Source: Eledone cirrhosa
Taxonomy: Eukaryota
Direction of reading: 5' to 3'
DNA length: 64,000 nucleotides
Assembly: GCA_964016885.1 (NCBI GenBank)
Contig: OZ024741.1
Span: forward strand, 216,442,001 to 216,506,000
Below the pieces are notes generated by a model. The model ran no database searches, had not been told where the DNA came from, and was given only the letters and a program-made list of their open reading frames with translations. The position numbers and the translations under genes are program-made. Positions 15,200-57,938 of the stretch are shown in pieces. Within the stretch, counting starts at the first letter, position 1; every line of letters starts with the position of its first letter.

Positions 15200-16100
15200 G
15201 TGAACTTAATCCCTAAACACCAATGAAAGCGGGAAAAGCTCTGTCTTGTGGAGCCTCTGGGACTTGTACAGACTTTAAACTTGTAGTTGACTGGTGTCTT
15301 GTATTCTCAGTCACTTAGCACTAATGAAACTAATGAAATGGGATGGCACATGGCTTAGTGGTTAGAGCATCGGGCTTGCAATCGAAAGGTTGTGAGTTCA
15401 ATTCTCGGACCGGGGGGTGTGTTGTTTCCTTGAGCAAGACACTTTATTTCACTTTGTTCCAGTTTACTCAGCTGTAGAAATGAGATCATAGGACTGGGGG
15501 TCCCTATCATTAAATCACCCAAGACACCTCCAACGAGATATACCTTGGAGGATGCCAGCTAAACTTGCATAGGTTTGAGCTGTAATAACAACAACAACAA
15601 TGAAACCAGGATTAGCCCTGGCCTGATGAGGCATCAAGGCTTGGGACAGAATTCACCTCTACAATTGACTAGTATTCTGTCCAGGGGAAGCCTTGTTATT
15701 TCAGTCACTTAGCACTAATGAAACAGGAATTAGCTCTGGTCTGATGAGTTCTCAATGCTTGGGAAAGGCTTTAACCCTGCGATTGACTGGTGTCTTATCC
15801 AGGGGAAGTTATGCTCTCTCAGTCACTTAACACCAATGAAATCTGGATAAGCTTTAACCTGATGGGCCTCTGAGCTTCTGACATATTTTAAACCTACAAC
15901 TGACTCATGTCCTGTCCAGAGGAAGCCTTGTTCTCTCAGTTACTTAACACCAATAAAACCAGGATAAGCTCTGGTCTTGGAACAGACTTCAAACCTGTAA
16001 TGGACCGGCGTCCATTCAGGGGGGTGACTTGTACTCTCAATCATTTAACACAAATGAAATGGGGGTATGCTCTGGAGTGATGAGGCTCTGGAATTGTGAC
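15200..16100 (+). repeat. diverged ~120-bp tandem repeat resembling a V-SINE-like central domain
   Basis: About 6 units of cctgcgattgactggtgtc.tgtccaggggaag..ctcagtcacttaacaccaatgaaaccaggataagctctggtctgatgag, interrupted by a SINE head at 15341. Confidence 0.7.
15341..15485 (+). mobile_element. tRNA-derived SINE (family 2) 5' part
   Basis: A box TGGCTTAGTGG, B box GAGTTCAATTC and ccttgagcaagacactttatttcac core. A diverged copy lies on the minus strand at ~41745-41875. Confidence 0.75.
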
Positions 16101-16834: not shown

Positions 16835-16905
16835 GACCACCGGTGGACAAGCAGTACTGTTGGAAGGGGTCGAAACTGCCAGAAGTACATCTCGATGGCT
16901 GAAGA
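16835..16905 (+). ncRNA. candidate permuted (pseudoknotted) hammerhead ribozyme, family C
   Basis: gacc..ggtggac aa gcag-UA-ctgttgg aagg ggtc-GAAA-ctgc cagaa gtacatc tcgatgg-CUGAAGA. Stem I is wobble-rich. Confidence 0.5.
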
Positions 16906-21136: not shown

Positions 21137-24100
21137 GTGGATAGATACAAGATTGACGGTATAAATATGGCCGACACCTCATTAACAGAAGAGTTTAACA
21201 ACAACAACACAAATATATACGGTAACACAAGAATAGATAACGATGAGATGTCTGTGTTATGTTTACCCCCGAAATTTGCGACATTCAAGAAGGTAAATTT
21301 GTTTAGTTGTCTGTCAGAAATAGAAAAATCATTTACAAAACTACGCTGGAGCCTCAAAAACAAAAACAAAAACAAAAGCAACAATATACGCACACACATA
21401 TACAACACACATTCCAACAACAACAGACACATAGACACAAACAACAATAACAACAACACACACACCAACAACAACAACAATAACAACATACCCAGAAACA
21501 ACAACAACAGACACGCAGACACAAACAACAATAACAACACACACAACAACAATAACACACACGGAGACAACAACAACACACATCAACAACAGCACACATC
21601 AACAACAACAACACACACACATTCAATGCCTCTCACCACCACCACAATCTTAACAAACACACAGACACAGAAAACAAGTAATGACAGTAGCACAGAAATC
21701 ATAGAAATAAGGGAAAGTAATAGGATTAAAAAGAGAAGGGAGACTAAGACAAAGAGAATAACCAAGACGAACACACAGACACACAAAATAGGGTAGATAA
21801 CAACAATGAGCCAGTGGAAAGAGACAGGAGTAATTGTGAGAGACATAGAAACAACCATGAGGCTGTTGGTGGAAATAGAAATAGAAACAACACAACTAAC
21901 AATAACAATAGCACTAGTACACATAAAGCAGCAGCCTGGAACTCTACGTTTTATAATCCCTCCGATAAATCATTCGACCTGCGACGAGTCCACGCCACGA
22001 CTTTACCATTTAGCAAACGCAGGCAATTGCCGTCGCAGGTCGATGAACAAACAGAAGCACAATTTAGTATAGCTAGATCCGAACTTAGAAATATTATAGA
22101 ACAGTATAGCAAGAAGCATAATAGAATGGAGGCCCAGCAACTGGGAGAAAAATCTGCAAATGGCTTGCGTAAGCTCATGCAGCGCTCACGTAATGGAGAG
22201 ATAGCATGCTTTCCAACAGACAAGTCTGGCAGAATGTCGGTTGACAGCCTGCCAAACTACATCCAGGAAATGTAACCCCACATCACTAACACAATAGAGG
22301 TCACACCACAGGAGCATGAGGATAGAGAAAAAGCCCTCAATGCCCATATGGTGATGTGGACGAATATAATGCAGCCCAACAAAAGGACTGCCAACAACTT
22401 CCAGGCCTGGAACAATGACGTGCCGGCGTTGTATGGGCTTCGAAAAGACCATAAAACGGGCTGTGACCCTGTCGCGGGACCACCAACACGGCCAGTCTGT
22501 GGAGCTAACATTGATAGTAACTACAGACTGTCCTACTTCCTCTCCCTAATCATACGCCCCATCATTGATATGTCCCCAGATGTATGTGACAGCACGGAGG
22601 ACCTCCTCAGCAGAATCGGCGGGAGTAACCGATCTGGGGACCTAACAAACTGCATAATAGGCAGTATGGATGTTGTGTCCCTGTATCCATCTATTGACGT
22701 GGATTTTGCTGTGGAGAAATGCGTAGAAATGATCAGTGAGAGCAAGGTTGAGTTCCGTGGGATTGATACCAGTGAGCTGGGACTCCTACTTAAGCTTACC
22801 TATAGTAATAATTACCTAGACACATATGACCTTAGCAACCTGTGCCCTACAAGACCAGTAAGAGGCAGACCACCTACCATTACCTCAATGGCCAAGAAAA
22901 CCCACACAGATAGATGGAACGGGTGGACCAGAGCCATACGGACACCCGAAAACCACGATGAACTGAAGAAAATGATTGCACATGCGGTAGGGGCCAGCAT
23001 AAAACTAACCCTTAAGGAACATATGTTCAAATTTAATGGAAAAACATATGCCCAAGAGGAAGGAGCAGCCATTGGTGTTAGCATTGCAGGCGACATAGCT
23101 AACTTATTCATGGTATGGTGGGACAGTAGACTTAAACTTAAACTTAAAGAACAATTAGAAGACAGCTTAACCCTAATAATGTACTCCCGCTACGTAGATG
23201 ATATAAACATCGTAGTTAAGACACCCCCACTAGAGAACAGTCAAGAACTAGAGAAAAACACGATGGAAAGCATCCAGCAAATAGCAAACTCCATCCACCA
23301 GAGCATTAGAGTTACTATAGATTACCCAAGTAAACACCCCAACCATCGATTACCTGTACTAGACACAGAGCTCTGGTTAGATACCATTAACAACAAAAAA
23401 CAAATCCTCCATTCCCATTATGCCAAACCCATGACTTCCAAACATCTGATCCACCGAAACTCGGCCGTTTCGGACCATACCAAAATCAACATACTGATTG
23501 CGGATTTGGTACGGGTGATGAGAAATGTGTCCCGCATGTGCAACCTCGAAGAACTAGAGAGACACATACAACACTTCATCCACCGTATGCAGTTCTCTGG
23601 CTACAATCAGAGAGATAAAATCAGAGTGTATAGAGGAGCCAGAACCAAATGGGAAAAAATGGTAAATAATGACATAAATGGGACCTGCCCCTTGTATAGG
23701 AGCAAATTTTGGAATAGAATAGAAAGAACTAGGAACAAGGCCAATAGAATAAACTCATGGTATGATAGCAATAAATACCAGAGTGTAATGTTCATCAATA
23801 CAACCCCTAGAGGTGAATTAGCTTACAAATTTAGAAGGGCCCTAAATAAACATAAACTCAATATTAAGATAGTAGAAAGACCAGGTACCTCCGTAAAAAC
23901 ACTTATTAGCAAGACATACCCTTTTCAAAGACCCTCATGTATAGATAAGAAATGTATAACCTGTAAAATAAGCCCCCATATTAACTGTAAAACTAGAAAT
24001 GTAGCGTATAGCATAAGATGTACTGAAGGACAATGTAGAGACAAAAATATAGTGTACATAGGTGAGACAGCTCGTAGTGTAGGGGAACGGATAAATGAAC

Positions 24101-24321
24101 ACTGGCTAGACCTTCAAGATAATAAAGAATCATCTGTACTCTACCAACATGCTAAAATAGAACACAAGAGTAAATTAGAGAACATAGAAATAAAAATAGA
24201 ATCTACACACAGAAAAGACGCAATGTTTAGACAAATTACAGAGGCAATAAACATAAAAGAATTACAACCAAAATTAAATAGAAAATATGAGTGGAACAGC
24301 AACATCACAACTTACAATTAA
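21137..24321 (+). pseudogene. Penelope RT/GIY-YIG polyprotein (657-aa open part 22348-24321; upstream one TAA at 22273 and a frameshift)
   Basis: LCLPPKFA..E.E....KLRW, PTDKSGR, LYGLRKDHK, RPV, SMDVVSLYPSI, GAAIGVSI, RYVDD, LPVLD, VAYSIRC..YIGETAR...ERINEH and RQITEA..LNRKYEW. Confidence 0.93.
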
Positions 24322-24521: not shown

Positions 24522-24566
24522 AGTCACTGAAGAGGTCACAGAGTGTGTGACGAAAGAACTATGACT
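24522..24566 (+). ncRNA. minimal type I hammerhead in Penelope pLTR
   Basis: agtca-CUGAAGA-g gtcaca gagtg tgtgac-GAAA-gaac-UA-tgact. Confidence 0.85.
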
Positions 24567-25590: not shown

Positions 25591-26548
25591 ATTTTGAGTT
25601 TATGTTGGTTGTATACCAACACCTAAGTATGCAGGCTGAAGCACTCGACGAAGTGCGCAGGTTGGTTTGGTTACTCCGGAGTAGTGTAAAATAAAGTTAA
25701 ATAAAGGTCAAATGATTAAAATTTAGCTTCGTTTATTACTGCTATATATATTTCAGTGACAGCCATCTTTGGCTGTTACCTCTTCAGGCAGTTTGAATTA
25801 GTATGGTATAGACAAGTACATATGTTGTTTAGGTGTATGATATTGTCAATACTCTGATATGCCCAGTTCCTTGTTGGGTTGTTAATTCACTGGGGAAGTG
25901 GAGTCATATGAATTCAAACAAACGAATTTCAGTGTCACAGGTCCCCTTCTCCTCTCATTGGTCAGTTATTAGAACATTCCTCATTCTAAGTGTTGTTATT
26001 GTTGGAGTTAGCTTAAAAATTGATAAAATGGTAGAAGGGACAAGGTGTTAAAGGAACAAAATAAGAAAATAACAAAAAAAGTGTCAAACTTCCCATTGTT
26101 CAGTTCTGAGAGCATTCCTCAGTCAGATGCTCTCAGAACTGAACAATGGGAAGTTTGACACTTTTTTTGTTATTTTCTTATTTTGTTCCTTTAACACCTT
26201 GTCCCTTCTACCATTTTATCAATTTTTAAGCTAACTCCAACAATAACAACACTTAGAATGAGGAATATTCTAATAACTGACCAATGAGAGGAGAAGGGGA
26301 CCCGTGACACTGAAATTCGTTTGTTTGAATTCATATGACTCCACTTCCCCAGTGAATTAACAACCCAACAAGGAACTGGGCATATCAGAGTATTGACAAT
26401 ATCATACACCTAAACAACATATGTACTTGTCTATACCATACTAATTCAAACTGCCTGAAGAGGTCACAGCCAAAGATGGCTGTCACTGAAATATATATAG
26501 CAGTAATAAACGAAGCTAAATTTTAATCATTTGACTTTTATTTAACTT

Positions 26549-26789: not shown

Positions 26790-26846
<57 letters not shown>

Positions 26847-26899
26847 AATAAGGGCGCTGCGGAGTTGCAAATGGGTTACATATGAAAAAAGTTTGTCCT

Positions 26900-26969
26900 T
26901 CATCAGTGATCTTCCAACCATCATAGGCATTTCATCGCTTTAAAGACCATATGCCTCCGGTTGGTGCGA
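26900..26969 (-). ncRNA. candidate permuted (pseudoknotted) hammerhead ribozyme, family A
   Basis: tcgc a ccaacc gg aggca-UA-tggtctt taaa gcga t-GAAA-tgcct atgat ggttgg aagatca-CUGAUGA. Confidence 0.65.
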
Positions 26970-27050
26970 GCAACGGCTAAAAAAAGTCGTTGGGACACGT
27001 AAATAAAGGGGACGCGAGGGTAAACAAACAAAATGGTGAAGCAACAGAAA

Positions 27051-27126
<76 letters not shown>

Positions 27127-50974: not shown

Positions 50975-51878
50975 CAAGTTGCTCGCACACTCTTCGGTTT
51001 GTTGTTTCCTGTTTTTTTTTTTGTTTTGTATTTTCGCTTTTTTCGCTGTTTTTCTCTTTTCTCTTTTCCATTTTCCCTTCTGTTATCCTATATTTTCTTT
51101 CCCTCTCTCTTTCGTTTTCCAAAATAACTTACCTAGTTATTGAACGCGTAGAAATATCCGCGATCCCCAGTAGACAACTGATGAAGACCCCCCCCCCCCC
51201 CACCCCCACCCGTTATTGCTTTCTTCTTATTCTTACTTTTAAGCATACCTCATCAAGCAACTATACAGCCAATCCTATTCTCCATATATTTTATCATGTT
51301 TCGCTATGACCAGTCTTCTCTCTCCTTCTACCTACCTATTTTGTTGCTATCTACTCTTCCCCCTCTTTCTTTCTCTCCCTTTCTCCCTCTCATTTTCACT
51401 CACCCTCTCTCTGATAGCAACCTCATTGTTTCCCTCGCCTGACCCTCTAGCAGTTCTTTTCTCACTCACACTCACTGGGATCAGACGTGTCTTTTCGCTC
51501 GTCCGCACGATCTAGAACTTACGCTCAGTAACGTCGTGGACTTGAATTTTCTTTCTTCAAGTTACCCGCACACTCTACGTTTTGTTATTTCCCGTTTTCT
51601 TTTTCGCTTTTTTTTTTGTTGTTGTTTTTATCTTTTCTCTTTTCTGTCTTTTTTTCCTTTCTGTTATCCTATATTTTCTTTCCCTCCCTCCTTCGTTTTC
51701 CCAATAACTTACCTAGTTATTGAACGCACTGGGGGTAGATATCTTGTCTTTAATGCGTAGAAATATCCGAGACCCCTAGCAGACAACTGATGAGGAAAAC
51801 TCGCCTCCCCTTCTTGCTTTCTTCTTATTCTTATTTTTAAGCATACCTTATCTAGCAACTACACAGCCAATCCACTTC

Positions 51879-51918: not shown

Positions 51919-52180
51919 TAAACGGAATAGAAAATGCTGACAAATTGTTCACAGTTGAAAAATGGTTTAATTAGGAATAAAAGAGTATTAGTGATTGTAT
52001 GGGTTAGTATTCAGTTGTGGTTTAAAGTTTTTAAACCACAACTGAATACTAACCCATACAATCACTAATACTCTTTTATTCCTAATTAAACCATTTTTCA
52101 ACTGTGAACAATTTGTCAGCATTTTCTATTCCGTTTACCAATATATAATAACTTGTGTGTTACACCTCTATTCTTTTAAC
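51912..52180. mobile_element. asymmetric fold-back in (TA)n, perfect ~115-bp arms, no HHR seen
   Basis: 51912-52026 is the reverse complement of 52029-52145, with a right extension to 52180. Confidence 0.8.
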
Positions 52181-55627: not shown

Positions 55628-55741
55628 GTAGAAGAATCAGTGAGAATAAATAAATATATCAGCCACACGACTTTCTGACATTTTTACAAACCGCACCACA
55701 CCCATCCACCATGGAGTTCTGATTAATTTACATCCAATTTA

Positions 55742-57938
55742 TATGCTGCAGGCGTGGCTGTGTGGTTAAGGAGATGCTTCTACAACCACCCGGGTTTTGG
55801 GTTCAATCCCTTTGCGTGACATCTTGAGCGAGTTTCTTCACTTCACATGACGCAGGCGTGACTGTGTGGTTAAGGAGATGGCTCTACAACCACCCTAGTT
55901 TGGGGTTCAATCTCTGCGTTAAATCTTGAGCACGTTTCTTCATTTTGCATTCAATTTGAATGACGAAGTGATCGCTGTGTGGTTAAGGAGAGCGCTCCAT
56001 AGCCATCCGGGTTTTGACTCGGGCATGGCTGTGTGGTTAAAGAAATGGCCCCACAACCACCCGGGTTTGGGGTTCAATCCTTCTGCGTGACATCTTGAGC
56101 GAGTTTCTTCATTTTGCTTCCAATTTATATAGACGCAGGCGATAATTTGAGTGAGTTTCTTCCCTTCATATGATGCAGGCGTGGATATGTGGTTAAAGAG
56201 ATCGCTCCACAACCACGCAGGTTTGGGGTTCAATCCCCCTGCGTTACATCTTGAGCGAGTTTCTTCATTTTACATTCAATTTGTATGACGAAGTGGTGGC
56301 TGTATGGTTAAGATGATCGCTCCACAACTATTTGAGTTCGGGGTTCAATTCCCCTGTGTGACATCTTGAGCGAGTTTCTTCACTTTATATAATGCAGGCG
56401 TGGCTGTGTGGTTAAAGAGATCGCTCCACAACCACCAGAGTTTGGGGTTCAACCCCCCTGTGTGACATCTTGAGCGAGTTTCTTCATTTTGCTTCCAATT
56501 TATATAGACTTAGGCACGGCTGTGTGGTTAAAGATATCGCTCTGCAACCACCCGAGTTTGGGGTGCAATCCCCCTGCGTTACATCTTGAGCAAGTTTCTT
56601 AATTTCGCATCCAAACTATATAGACTCAGGCATGGCTGTGTGGTTAAAGATATCACTCTGCAACCACCCGAGTTTGGGGTGCAATCTCCCTGCGTTAAAT
56701 CTTGAGCAAGTTTCTTCATTTTACATACAATTTGTATGACGAAGTGGTGGCTGTGTAGTTAAGGAGATCACTCCACAACTATTTGAGTTCGAGGTTCCAT
56801 TCCCATGTGTGCGAGTTCCTTTATTTTACATTCAATTTATATGACGCAGGTGTGGCTGTGTGGTTAGGGAGATCACTCCATAACTATCTGGGTTTTGGGT
56901 TCAATCCCCTTGCGTGACATCTTGAGCAAGTTTCTTAATTATATAGACTCAGGCGTGGCTGTGTGGTTAAGGAGATCGCTCTGCAATCACTTGGATTTGT
57001 GATTCAACCCCCCTGCATTACAACTTGAGCGAGTTTCTTCATTTTATATGACGCAGGCATGCCTGTGTGGTTAAAGAGATCGCTCCATAAACACCCGGAT
57101 TTGGGGTTCAATCCCCCTGCGTTACATCTTGAGCAAGTTTCTTAATTTCGCATCCAAACTATATAGACTCAGGCATGGCTGTGTGGTTAAAGATATCGCT
57201 CTGCAACCACCCGAGTTTGGGGATCAATCTCCCTGCGTTAAATCTTGAGCAAGTTTCTTCATTTTACATACAATTTGTATGACGAAGTGGTGGCTGTGTG
57301 GTTAAGGAGATCACTCCACAACTATTTGATTTCGGGGTTCAATTCCCCTGTGTGCGAGTTTCTTTATTTTATATTCAATTTATATGACGCAGGCGTGGCT
57401 GTATGATTAAGGAGATCGCTCCATTACCATCCGGGTAATCCCCTTGCGTGACATCTTGAGCGAGTTTCTTCATTTTGCTTCCAATTTATATAGGCGCAGA
57501 CGACATTTTGAGTGAGTTTCTTCACTTTATATGGCGCAGGTGTGGCTGTGAGGTTAAGGAGACCACTCCACAATCACTTGGGTTTGGGGTTCAATCCCTC
57601 TGTGTGACATCTTGAGCGAGTTTCTTCATTTTACATCCAATTTATATGACGCAGTCGTGGCGCTGTTGTTAAGGAGGATATCGCCACAACCATTCGGGTG
57701 TTGGATTCAATCGATCCTGCATTACATCTTGAGCGAGTTTCTTCACTTTGCATCCAAACTATATAGACTCAGGTGTGGCTGTGTGGTTAAGGAGATCGCT
57801 CGGTAACAACTTAATGTATTGAGTTCAATTCTCCTGCGTGACATCTTGAGCGAGTTTATACTATAACCTCCAGTTAACCAATGCTATGTGAATGAAATTT
57901 CTTAGACGGTGACAGGGTGGAAGACCCGTCATCTATAT
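55742..57938 (+). repeat. tandem array (~19 x ~110 bp) of a tRNA-derived SINE head, ending in one SINE body
   Basis: Most units have A box TGGCTGTGTGGTTAA and B box GGTTCAATCCC. The last unit continues into a SINE-like body at 57855-57938. Confidence 0.85.

Follow-up and report, generated by a model that had tools for sequence, protein, structure and literature searches.

The available part of Eckert et al. (2023, PMC10085705) traces non-circularly permuted hammerhead ribozymes to metatranscriptomes, metagenomes and one doubtful bacterial case. It arranges them in a scheme of six permutations in which block C is assumed to be uninterruptible, gives only two type-CSG sequences (both metagenomic), and flags as unexplained those SGC cases in which helix 'I' is joined directly to stem III. 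The words 'kink' and 'k-turn' have 0 occurrences in its text and supplement as available (supplementary figures aside). The type most like the motif reported here is type SGC (HRIMA-1 and variants; PMC10085705): as far as this source describes it, the block order S-G-C and all core words are common to both, both have a short linker between stems I and II with helix 'I' joining the other strands, and helix 'I' of types SGC and CSG corresponds to what we call the outer helix. Type SGC, however, has an intact block C, whereas here the 5' strand of stem II is found where the RNA begins. The motifs of Eckert et al. are metatranscriptomic; ours come from repeats in an animal genome.

Penelope elements are described as carrying minimal type I hammerheads (Cervera and de la Pena 2014, PMC4209133, in the part available). 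There too the hammerhead core is in the terminal region of the element, but those motifs have the order C-G-S and a tiny palindromic stem III, whereas the present motif is non-circularly permuted and has a full stem III. The Naiads, which are Penelope-like elements, are described in the accessible part of Craig et al. 2021 (PMC8557442) as lacking a canonical hammerhead and having a (TA)n insertion; some carry unexplained 'HHR_core' or 'HHR_half_core' words near the 3' end, for which that part gives no structure, and some carry SECIS elements. Among openly licensed papers and preprints, judged by title and the start of the abstract, we found no kink-turn (K-turn) in a natural hammerhead and no permuted hammerheads in Naiads. 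A 2026 retrozyme preprint has, in its available part, type I hammerheads only, and PMC12510878 names no hammerhead K-turn in the 12 of 17 places examined.

The motifs and their setting

We analysed a window of 64,000 nt of Eledone cirrhosa contig OZ024741.1 (positions 216,442,001 to 216,506,000; all coordinates below are those of the window). It consists of microsatellite-rich animal-type DNA with retroelement fragments. Three motif families in it, A, B and C, are hammerhead-like with the block order S-G-C, and we predict from their sequences that they are self-cleaving RNAs. Rfam gave 0 matches at gathering score over the 64-kb window, and none of the Rfam hammerhead families matched element A at E up to 5.

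Several other structured repeats were observed in the window. Ordinary or minimal type I hammerhead-like cores are found at 28241-, 27827-, 33420-, 52831-, 25010+/24887- and 26455+/25787- (the sign gives the strand), and more type I-like cores at 24527+/20193-/38757+/37403- and 16680-; some of these type I-like motifs are in inverted duplications. Before the 24527 set lies a single ORF of 681 aa (22276-24321) of the RT plus GIY-YIG-like kind. Long near-perfect inverted duplications at 25780-26520 and 51980-52140 have a pattern described for Penelope-like insertions (PMC8557442, in the available part). Five degenerate 118-nt tandem units at 15540-16100 (plus strand; 71% column identity) have GAAA upstream of a CUGAUGA-like word; their upstream helix covaries between units 2 and 3, they form a rod with a purine-rich loop, and no clear stem I was found in them. 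About 18 tandem copies of a 104-116-nt unit at 55740-57860 (plus strand) look tRNA-derived.

A hammerhead layout with a split block C

CUGAnGA, GAAA and the UH core word are present beside stems I and III in A, in C and in the B copy B1. The strand preceding GAAA finds its partner at the 5' end of the motif and not in the bases after CUGAnGA, directly 3' of which only 0-1 pairs of a stem II are possible in A, B1 and C. The chain order, which rests on sequence and covariation, is: 5' stem II strand, outer helix, loop, stem III, cleavage triplet, stem I strand, stem II strand, GAAA, stem III, loop, outer helix, stem I strand, CUGAnGA. Both of its ends fall between core A9 and position 10.1. Because block C is split in this way, the motif lies outside the six-permutation scheme of Eckert et al.; it appears to work like a type-SGC hammerhead without that type's intact block C. 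Since A and B align without gaps and keep the pairs of the upstream strand, the outer helix links stems I and II at their far ends; it also abuts stem III end to end, both of its strands running on into stem III through a 2x5 loop. The G10.1-C11.1 closing pair of stem II is absent in A and B (U on both sides is also found in Hydra-clade motifs) and present in C, where the upstream strand supplies it. All three families escaped a generic three-block hammerhead scan in which stem II has to follow the core, and this exposed the split layout. The supply of a stem II strand from the RNA 5' end, like the probable kinship with Naiads described below, was absent from the original prediction for this locus.

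Family A is represented by an element at 26845..27055 (minus strand), a short repeat that is here a single copy between two (TA)n runs; a pyrimidine-rich tract lies upstream of the motif, and the motif ends ~55 nt before the 3' (TA)n. On the minus strand, the stem II 5' strand comes from upstream (26965..26970; 4 pairs with 26935-26938, one compensatory change relative to B, and a variant at 26939 that gives a fifth pair). It is followed by the outer helix 5' strand (26958..26964; the NC side of the K-turn pattern, with 3n = G at 26958) and, as read from the sequence, by G2n-A1n of that pattern (26956..26957). Block S (26944..26955) comprises the stem III 3' strand (26955-26952), U16.1 (26951), A17 (26950) and the stem I 5' strand (26949-26944), with the predicted cleavage site between 26950 and 26949. 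Block G (26926..26939) comprises the stem II 3' strand (26939-26934), GAAA (26933-26930) and the stem III 5' strand (26929-26926). Next come the 3-nt bulge UAU (26925-26923), G1b-A2b (26922-26921), the outer helix 3' strand (26914..26920; 3b = U at 26920), the stem I 3' strand (26912-26907) and the CUGAUGA core (26906-26900), with no stem II after the core. The full loop of A is thus a 4-bp stem III, the UAU bulge, G1b-A2b facing G2n-A1n, and then 7 pairs. These 7 pairs, the helix 'I' of Eckert et al., are all kept between A and B, 4 of them by compensatory changes.

Family B is found as a tandem pair. B1 (51723..51793, plus strand; core at 51787) is a gap-free homologue of A (52/87 identical), with the outer helix at 51729-51735 paired with 51773-51779, UA at 51736-51737, the bulge CGA at 51768-51770 and GA at 51771-51772; the helix lengths around its loop are as in A, 2n is U and 3b-3n is C-G. 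The second copy, B2 (51144..51184, plus strand; core at 51178), has an internal deletion that takes out the segment between the two stem II strands and keeps GAAA, the bulge plus GA, and the core. This deletion (51144-51155, plus strand), a single case, looks as if it came from a template jump across the proposed paired stem II, with a short shared sequence as the alternative explanation. The motif of family C (16835..16905, plus strand; core CUGAAGA at 16899) has the layout and helix lengths of A and B, and its loop has AA (16849-16850) facing a 5-nt A-rich strand (16880-16884). C is a single copy and may be decayed.

All 22 helix pairs compared between A and B are kept (stem II 4, outer helix 7, stem III 5, stem I 6), 8 of them with changes on both sides and 3 with a change on one side; the count omits two end positions of stem II, both mismatched in A and one of them in B, and uses A and B only because MAFFT aligned C out of structural register. 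A descriptor of the S-G-C order with stems I and III of at least 4 bp found 3 sites in the window versus 2 in 300 dinucleotide shuffles (0.007 per window), and with the outer and 5' helices added it found 2 sites (A and B; C fails on a mismatch) versus 0 in 300 shuffles; since it was composed after the motifs were seen, this result shows non-randomness only. Among 127 metagenome/viral contig loci containing core words, the descriptor matched none: a pattern scan of metagenome contigs gave 7 loci, none with an S block, and viral contigs gave 120 loci for a loose pattern (1/64 parts) and 0 for a tight one. The z-scores for folding as a rod are -4.1 for A, -1.5 for B and +0.3 for C.

Two other structures were considered for A. 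A box C/D snoRNA was rejected, at 16.8 bits versus a cut-off of 65 (E = 4.7) and with no box C upstream of the GA strand. A SECIS element at the A loop was likewise rejected, on orientation. SECIS elements have an apical stem beyond the GA pairs; the A-type helix at that place is open-ended instead.

Sequence variation within family A

In four runs compared at 80% likeness, A matches 1992 contigs in X1, 39 in X5, 2 in X7 and 1489 reads in X15, numbers expected for a high-copy repeat that is also present in other organisms; the match depth is centred on 26860-27005. None of the runs listed as containing element A is an RNA run, a result that is uninformative about expression. The variants are unphased. 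The stem III pair 26953/26928 is G-C in this copy and A-U in most X1 depth, with the A-U letters in 577018/589972 (98%) and 351106/461999 (76%) of depth. In X1, A makes up ~75% of depth at L1 (U here) and ~28% at 3b, whereas 3n has U in 17% and A in 7%. Among 40 of 74 difference rows there is no variant at any of the four GA positions, at -1b or at the 12 core positions. With 15 variable of 71 positions in those 40 of 74 rows, this absence has p = 0.38 for GA and p = 0.04 for the core; the GA invariance is therefore not significant alone.

Split hammerhead-like layouts in Naiad elements

We surveyed by eye the last ~300 nt of 53 of the 54 Naiad consensi (PMC8557442 File S5), together with motif-word matches; the survey was not computed and is not exhaustive. 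The split layout was found in sense orientation in 11 of the 54 consensi, from six phyla: Bfor, 3_Chem, Amil, Aacu, Anas, 2_Movir, Plae, EuTe, Obim, Ovul and Esco (degenerate). Core words, cleavage triplet and four helices are retained in these 11 consensi, and in 10 of them the G10.1 that faces C11.1 comes from the upstream strand. Helix lengths range from 4 to 12 bp for stem III and from 5 to 16 bp for the outer helix.

At the joint between these two helices, the near-identical Obim and Ovul, which represent a single octopus lineage, show the standard K-turn pattern, with a bulge of AAU or AGU and U.U at 3b.3n. A U.U at 3b.3n is typical of box C/D K-turns. The three coral Naiads have a 7-nt one-sided bulge and a stem III of 12 bp, Plae and EuTe have bulges of 3 nt and 1 nt, respectively, a hairpin is inserted in Bfor and 3_Chem, and Esco has a 6x1 loop; in 2_Movir a 5-nt bulge is on the opposite strand, which might be a reversed K-turn. 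In the octopus Naiad motif (Naiad_Obim/Ovul), stem III is 4 bp long, the bulge reads purine-purine-U and tandem GA is present, on stems unrelated to those of A and B. This motif shares common dimensions with A, B and C (4 bp / 2x5 loop / 6-7 bp), and by eye the stem sequences of all three differ from its own.

From layout and position we infer that A, B and C belong with the Naiads, and the repeats are likely to be the 3' ends of Naiad-type Penelope-like retroelements. A and B1 reach (TA)n 55 and 88 nt past the core, which is a weak Naiad sign, as (TA)n runs are everywhere in the window. No Naiad-type ORF (N-terminal GIY-YIG, C-terminal RT) of at least 110 aa is found beside A, B or C in the window.

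Other Naiads carry other layouts. Seven nematode Naiads (Ppac, 1-3_Nbra, Hcon, Hpol and Asuum) end, by eye, in an intact type-CSG layout with helix I, and Smim and Ptep, also by eye, have S-G-C with helix I and a weak stem II. Judging from these consensi, non-circular hammerhead layouts are frequent in Naiads. The bivalve and hemichordate Naiads (CGi, Sglo, Olur, Tgra, Pmar, 1/2_Skow and 1/2_Pfla) have a different conserved, apparently structured 3' motif; these consensi are without hammerhead words, and the motif is a candidate for another ribozyme. Six Naiads (1_Movir, Mgal, Bpla, Mphi, Scon and Mmer) end in what we take to be twister-like words.

The loop as a probable kink-turn

The original prediction drew the three loops as a standard K-turn pattern in A, a non-standard one (2n = U) in B and an A-rich 2x5 loop in C, and these drawings and their coordinates were confirmed. 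A 3-nt bulge after a Watson-Crick C helix is found in A, B1, B2 (one strand only) and C. The pair G1b.A1n with A2b.G2n is present in A and in 2 of the 11 split Naiad consensi; B has U at 2n, and C does not have it. By the standard definition (PMC5061560, in the available part), A and the octopus Naiad have the standard K-turn pattern and C is not a member. The 3-nt bulge, G1b.A1n and A2b.G2n make A and the octopus Naiad like Kt-7, U4 and box C/D K-turns, from which C differs in having A at both 1b and 2n; C does retain A1n and A2b, the two adenines that make the cross-strand contacts of K-turns (PMC5061560). B is non-standard like Kt-23 of T. thermophilus (2n = U; PMC2790904, as available), but the next pairs of Kt-23 are non-Watson-Crick and matter for folding, whereas B has a Watson-Crick C-G. 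The conservation of the GA dinucleotides across families, on which the original prediction counted, holds in A and partly in B, but not in C, which lacks both guanines, nor in 9 of the 11 split Naiads, which lack the standard tandem GA; this counts in part against that prediction.

Nearest-neighbour folding, with programs that have no K-turn term, draws the A and B loops as 1x4 loops, with A1n paired to L1-U in this A copy and an A-U pair at 2b-2n in B; the K-turn is thus one possible drawing of the A and B loops. The competing A1n-U pair is removed in most A depth, where L1 is A. The 3b.3n rule (PMC4382518, in the part available) predicts ion-induced folding where 3n is G. By this rule A, with U.G, should fold in Mg2+ alone, and B, with the poorest-folding type (C-G), should not; box C/D-type K-turns fold only with L7Ae according to the same source, and tertiary contacts are able to fold weak K-turns (PMC5061560). 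L7Ae reads G1b and G2n (PMC5061560); because B lacks G2n and C lacks both, protein help, which is possible for A and the octopus Naiad, would not be general. The suggestion that folding is assisted by L7Ae/15.5K proteins is not directly supported, and the 3b.3n rule predicts protein-free Mg2+ folding of A.

It is likely that the A loop folds into a true K-turn. The placing of a K-turn pattern at this joint is supported by the octopus Naiad, an independent family in which the pattern recurs with unrelated stems. As only 2 of the 11 split Naiads have it, the others having bulges, a hairpin or an uneven loop, the K-turn appears to be a lineage-specific hinge and not a class feature.

Geometry of folding in cis and in trans

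Both tails emerge from the outer helix at its far end, and from there they have to get to the loop that stem III closes. In the hammerhead, stem III points away from the direction that the tails need. A K-turn, with an included angle of ~50 degrees, would supply the U-turn in A, probably in B, and in the octopus Naiad: the kinked outer helix would swing back, so that one RNA could build its own catalytic core and cut itself. The predicted requirements of such cis self-cleavage are Mg2+ and tertiary contacts, not protein, and the cut would delimit the 3' region of the element RNA or serve in its processing. Where the joint is a bulge or a three-way junction, as in the other lineages, the mechanism may be a different one.

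We examined this arrangement with a coarse helix-axis model that uses general-knowledge helix parameters and best-case strand phases. In the model, the best cis gap at the K-turn angle is -3.7 Å for A, +4.4 Å for B, -11.6 Å for C and -7.0 Å for the octopus Naiad, versus +13.9 Å for A as an unfolded plain bulge; ~1% of the sampled A geometries close. With both helices intact, Plae (+16.8 Å) and EuTe (+20.2 Å) do not close in cis, and EuTe-like lengths do so only with the 5-bp outer helix melted. The coral Naiads have a gap of +11 Å at the K-turn angle and +1.8 Å at a free angle, and Bfor, 2_Movir and Esco are able to close at a free angle. A planar reciprocal two-unit ring takes 45-60 degree kinks and a 45-60 degree bend per core.

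The proposal that the kink folds the outer helix back and so enables the connectivity stands in part: the loop lies at the required turn and in the coarse model A closes only when kinked, but B misses by ~4 Å and most of the split Naiads lack the K-turn. Kink and dimer had been put forward as alternatives, which does not hold, as they are not either/or. A reciprocal dimer needs a bend of equal size, and a kink is thus compatible with monomer and dimer alike; nor does the coarse model decide between the two.

Alternative explanations

Sequence and model together lead us to prefer, tentatively and at somewhat below an even chance, the reading in which the A-type loop is a real K-turn that lets one RNA fold and cut in cis. 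A serious but doubtful competitor is action in trans, in which the stem III loop of one copy would pair with the two tails of another (in tandem or in a second molecule), and the K-turn would close a reciprocal two-unit ring or be dispensable. Lunse 2017 reportedly provides a precedent for dimeric action. In the coarse model, the relatives with a near-continuous stem III and outer helix are unable to close in cis and a planar two-unit ring asks just the 45-60 degree bend per core; Naiad helix lengths vary freely, B is present as a tandem pair, and dimeric action has been proposed for the Penelope minimal hammerheads (PMC4209133, in the available part). These points are countered by the fixed helix lengths of the K-turn-bearing families, which fit cis closure, by the occurrence of A as a single copy here, and by the ability of EuTe-like lengths to close in cis if the outer helix melts. 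It seems quite unlikely that the K-turn serves chiefly to bind 15.5K/Snu13 or some other member of the L7Ae family, a protein that would gate folding and cleavage or package the RNA. The purine at L2 and U at L3 in A and the octopus Naiad would suit such a site, as would the box C/D-like U.U of the latter, the C-G at 3b-3n of B, which is of the protein-requiring type (PMC4382518, as available), and the helper protein that Eckert et al. suggest for slow SGC ribozymes (PMC10085705, likewise); yet the guanines that L7Ae reads are missing, G2n in B and both in C, L3 differs from U in B1 (A), B2 (C) and C (G), and the main 3b.3n of A (U.G) predicts protein-free folding.

We consider it rather improbable that the loop is a flexible uneven break between helices and its GA match incidental. 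Tandem GA plus a 3-nt bulge are found at the same joint in A/B and in the octopus Naiad with all stem letters different, and C keeps A1n and A2b, which argues against this explanation even though six other kinds of break occur at that joint in Naiads, folding programs draw 1x4 loops, and the GA invariance in A has p = 0.38. We judge it very improbable that the copies in the window are relics without activity, or that they form a structure of box C/D or SECIS type and are not a ribozyme. A and B do lack G10.1-C11.1, the sole Rfam match near A is the weak box C/D snoRNA (16.8 bits), and SECIS elements occur in some Naiads (PMC8557442, in the available part), but core words, triplet and four helices persist across six phyla in the 11 Naiad consensi, the 12 core positions of A are without a listed variant (p = 0.04), and beyond the GA pairs the helix has an open end where a SECIS would have its apical stem.

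Implications

With the cis-cutting K-turn as the preferred reading, the main new points are, as far as the sequences go, the split wiring and the link to Naiads; the predicted K-turn appears to be specific to a lineage. A more far-reaching proposal, which we regard as unlikely in its entirety, is that this would be a seventh natural hammerhead wiring, opened inside the CUGAnGA block, with a theta shape that a true K-turn closes, which would make it the first self-cleaving ribozyme to contain one; that it would be the missing ribozyme of Naiads; and that binding of host 15.5K/Snu13 would switch cleavage on in this lineage. A ribozyme that contains a K-turn would offer, as it stands, a switch that responds to protein. 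The natural series of joints (K-turn; 1-, 3-, 5- and 7-nt bulges; three-way junction) makes monomer versus dimer action testable with RNAs of ~75 nt, and it bears on the puzzle of Eckert et al. in which helix I is joined directly to stem III. If the motifs cleave, permuted hammerheads would be common in animal genomes, in a wiring beyond the published six.
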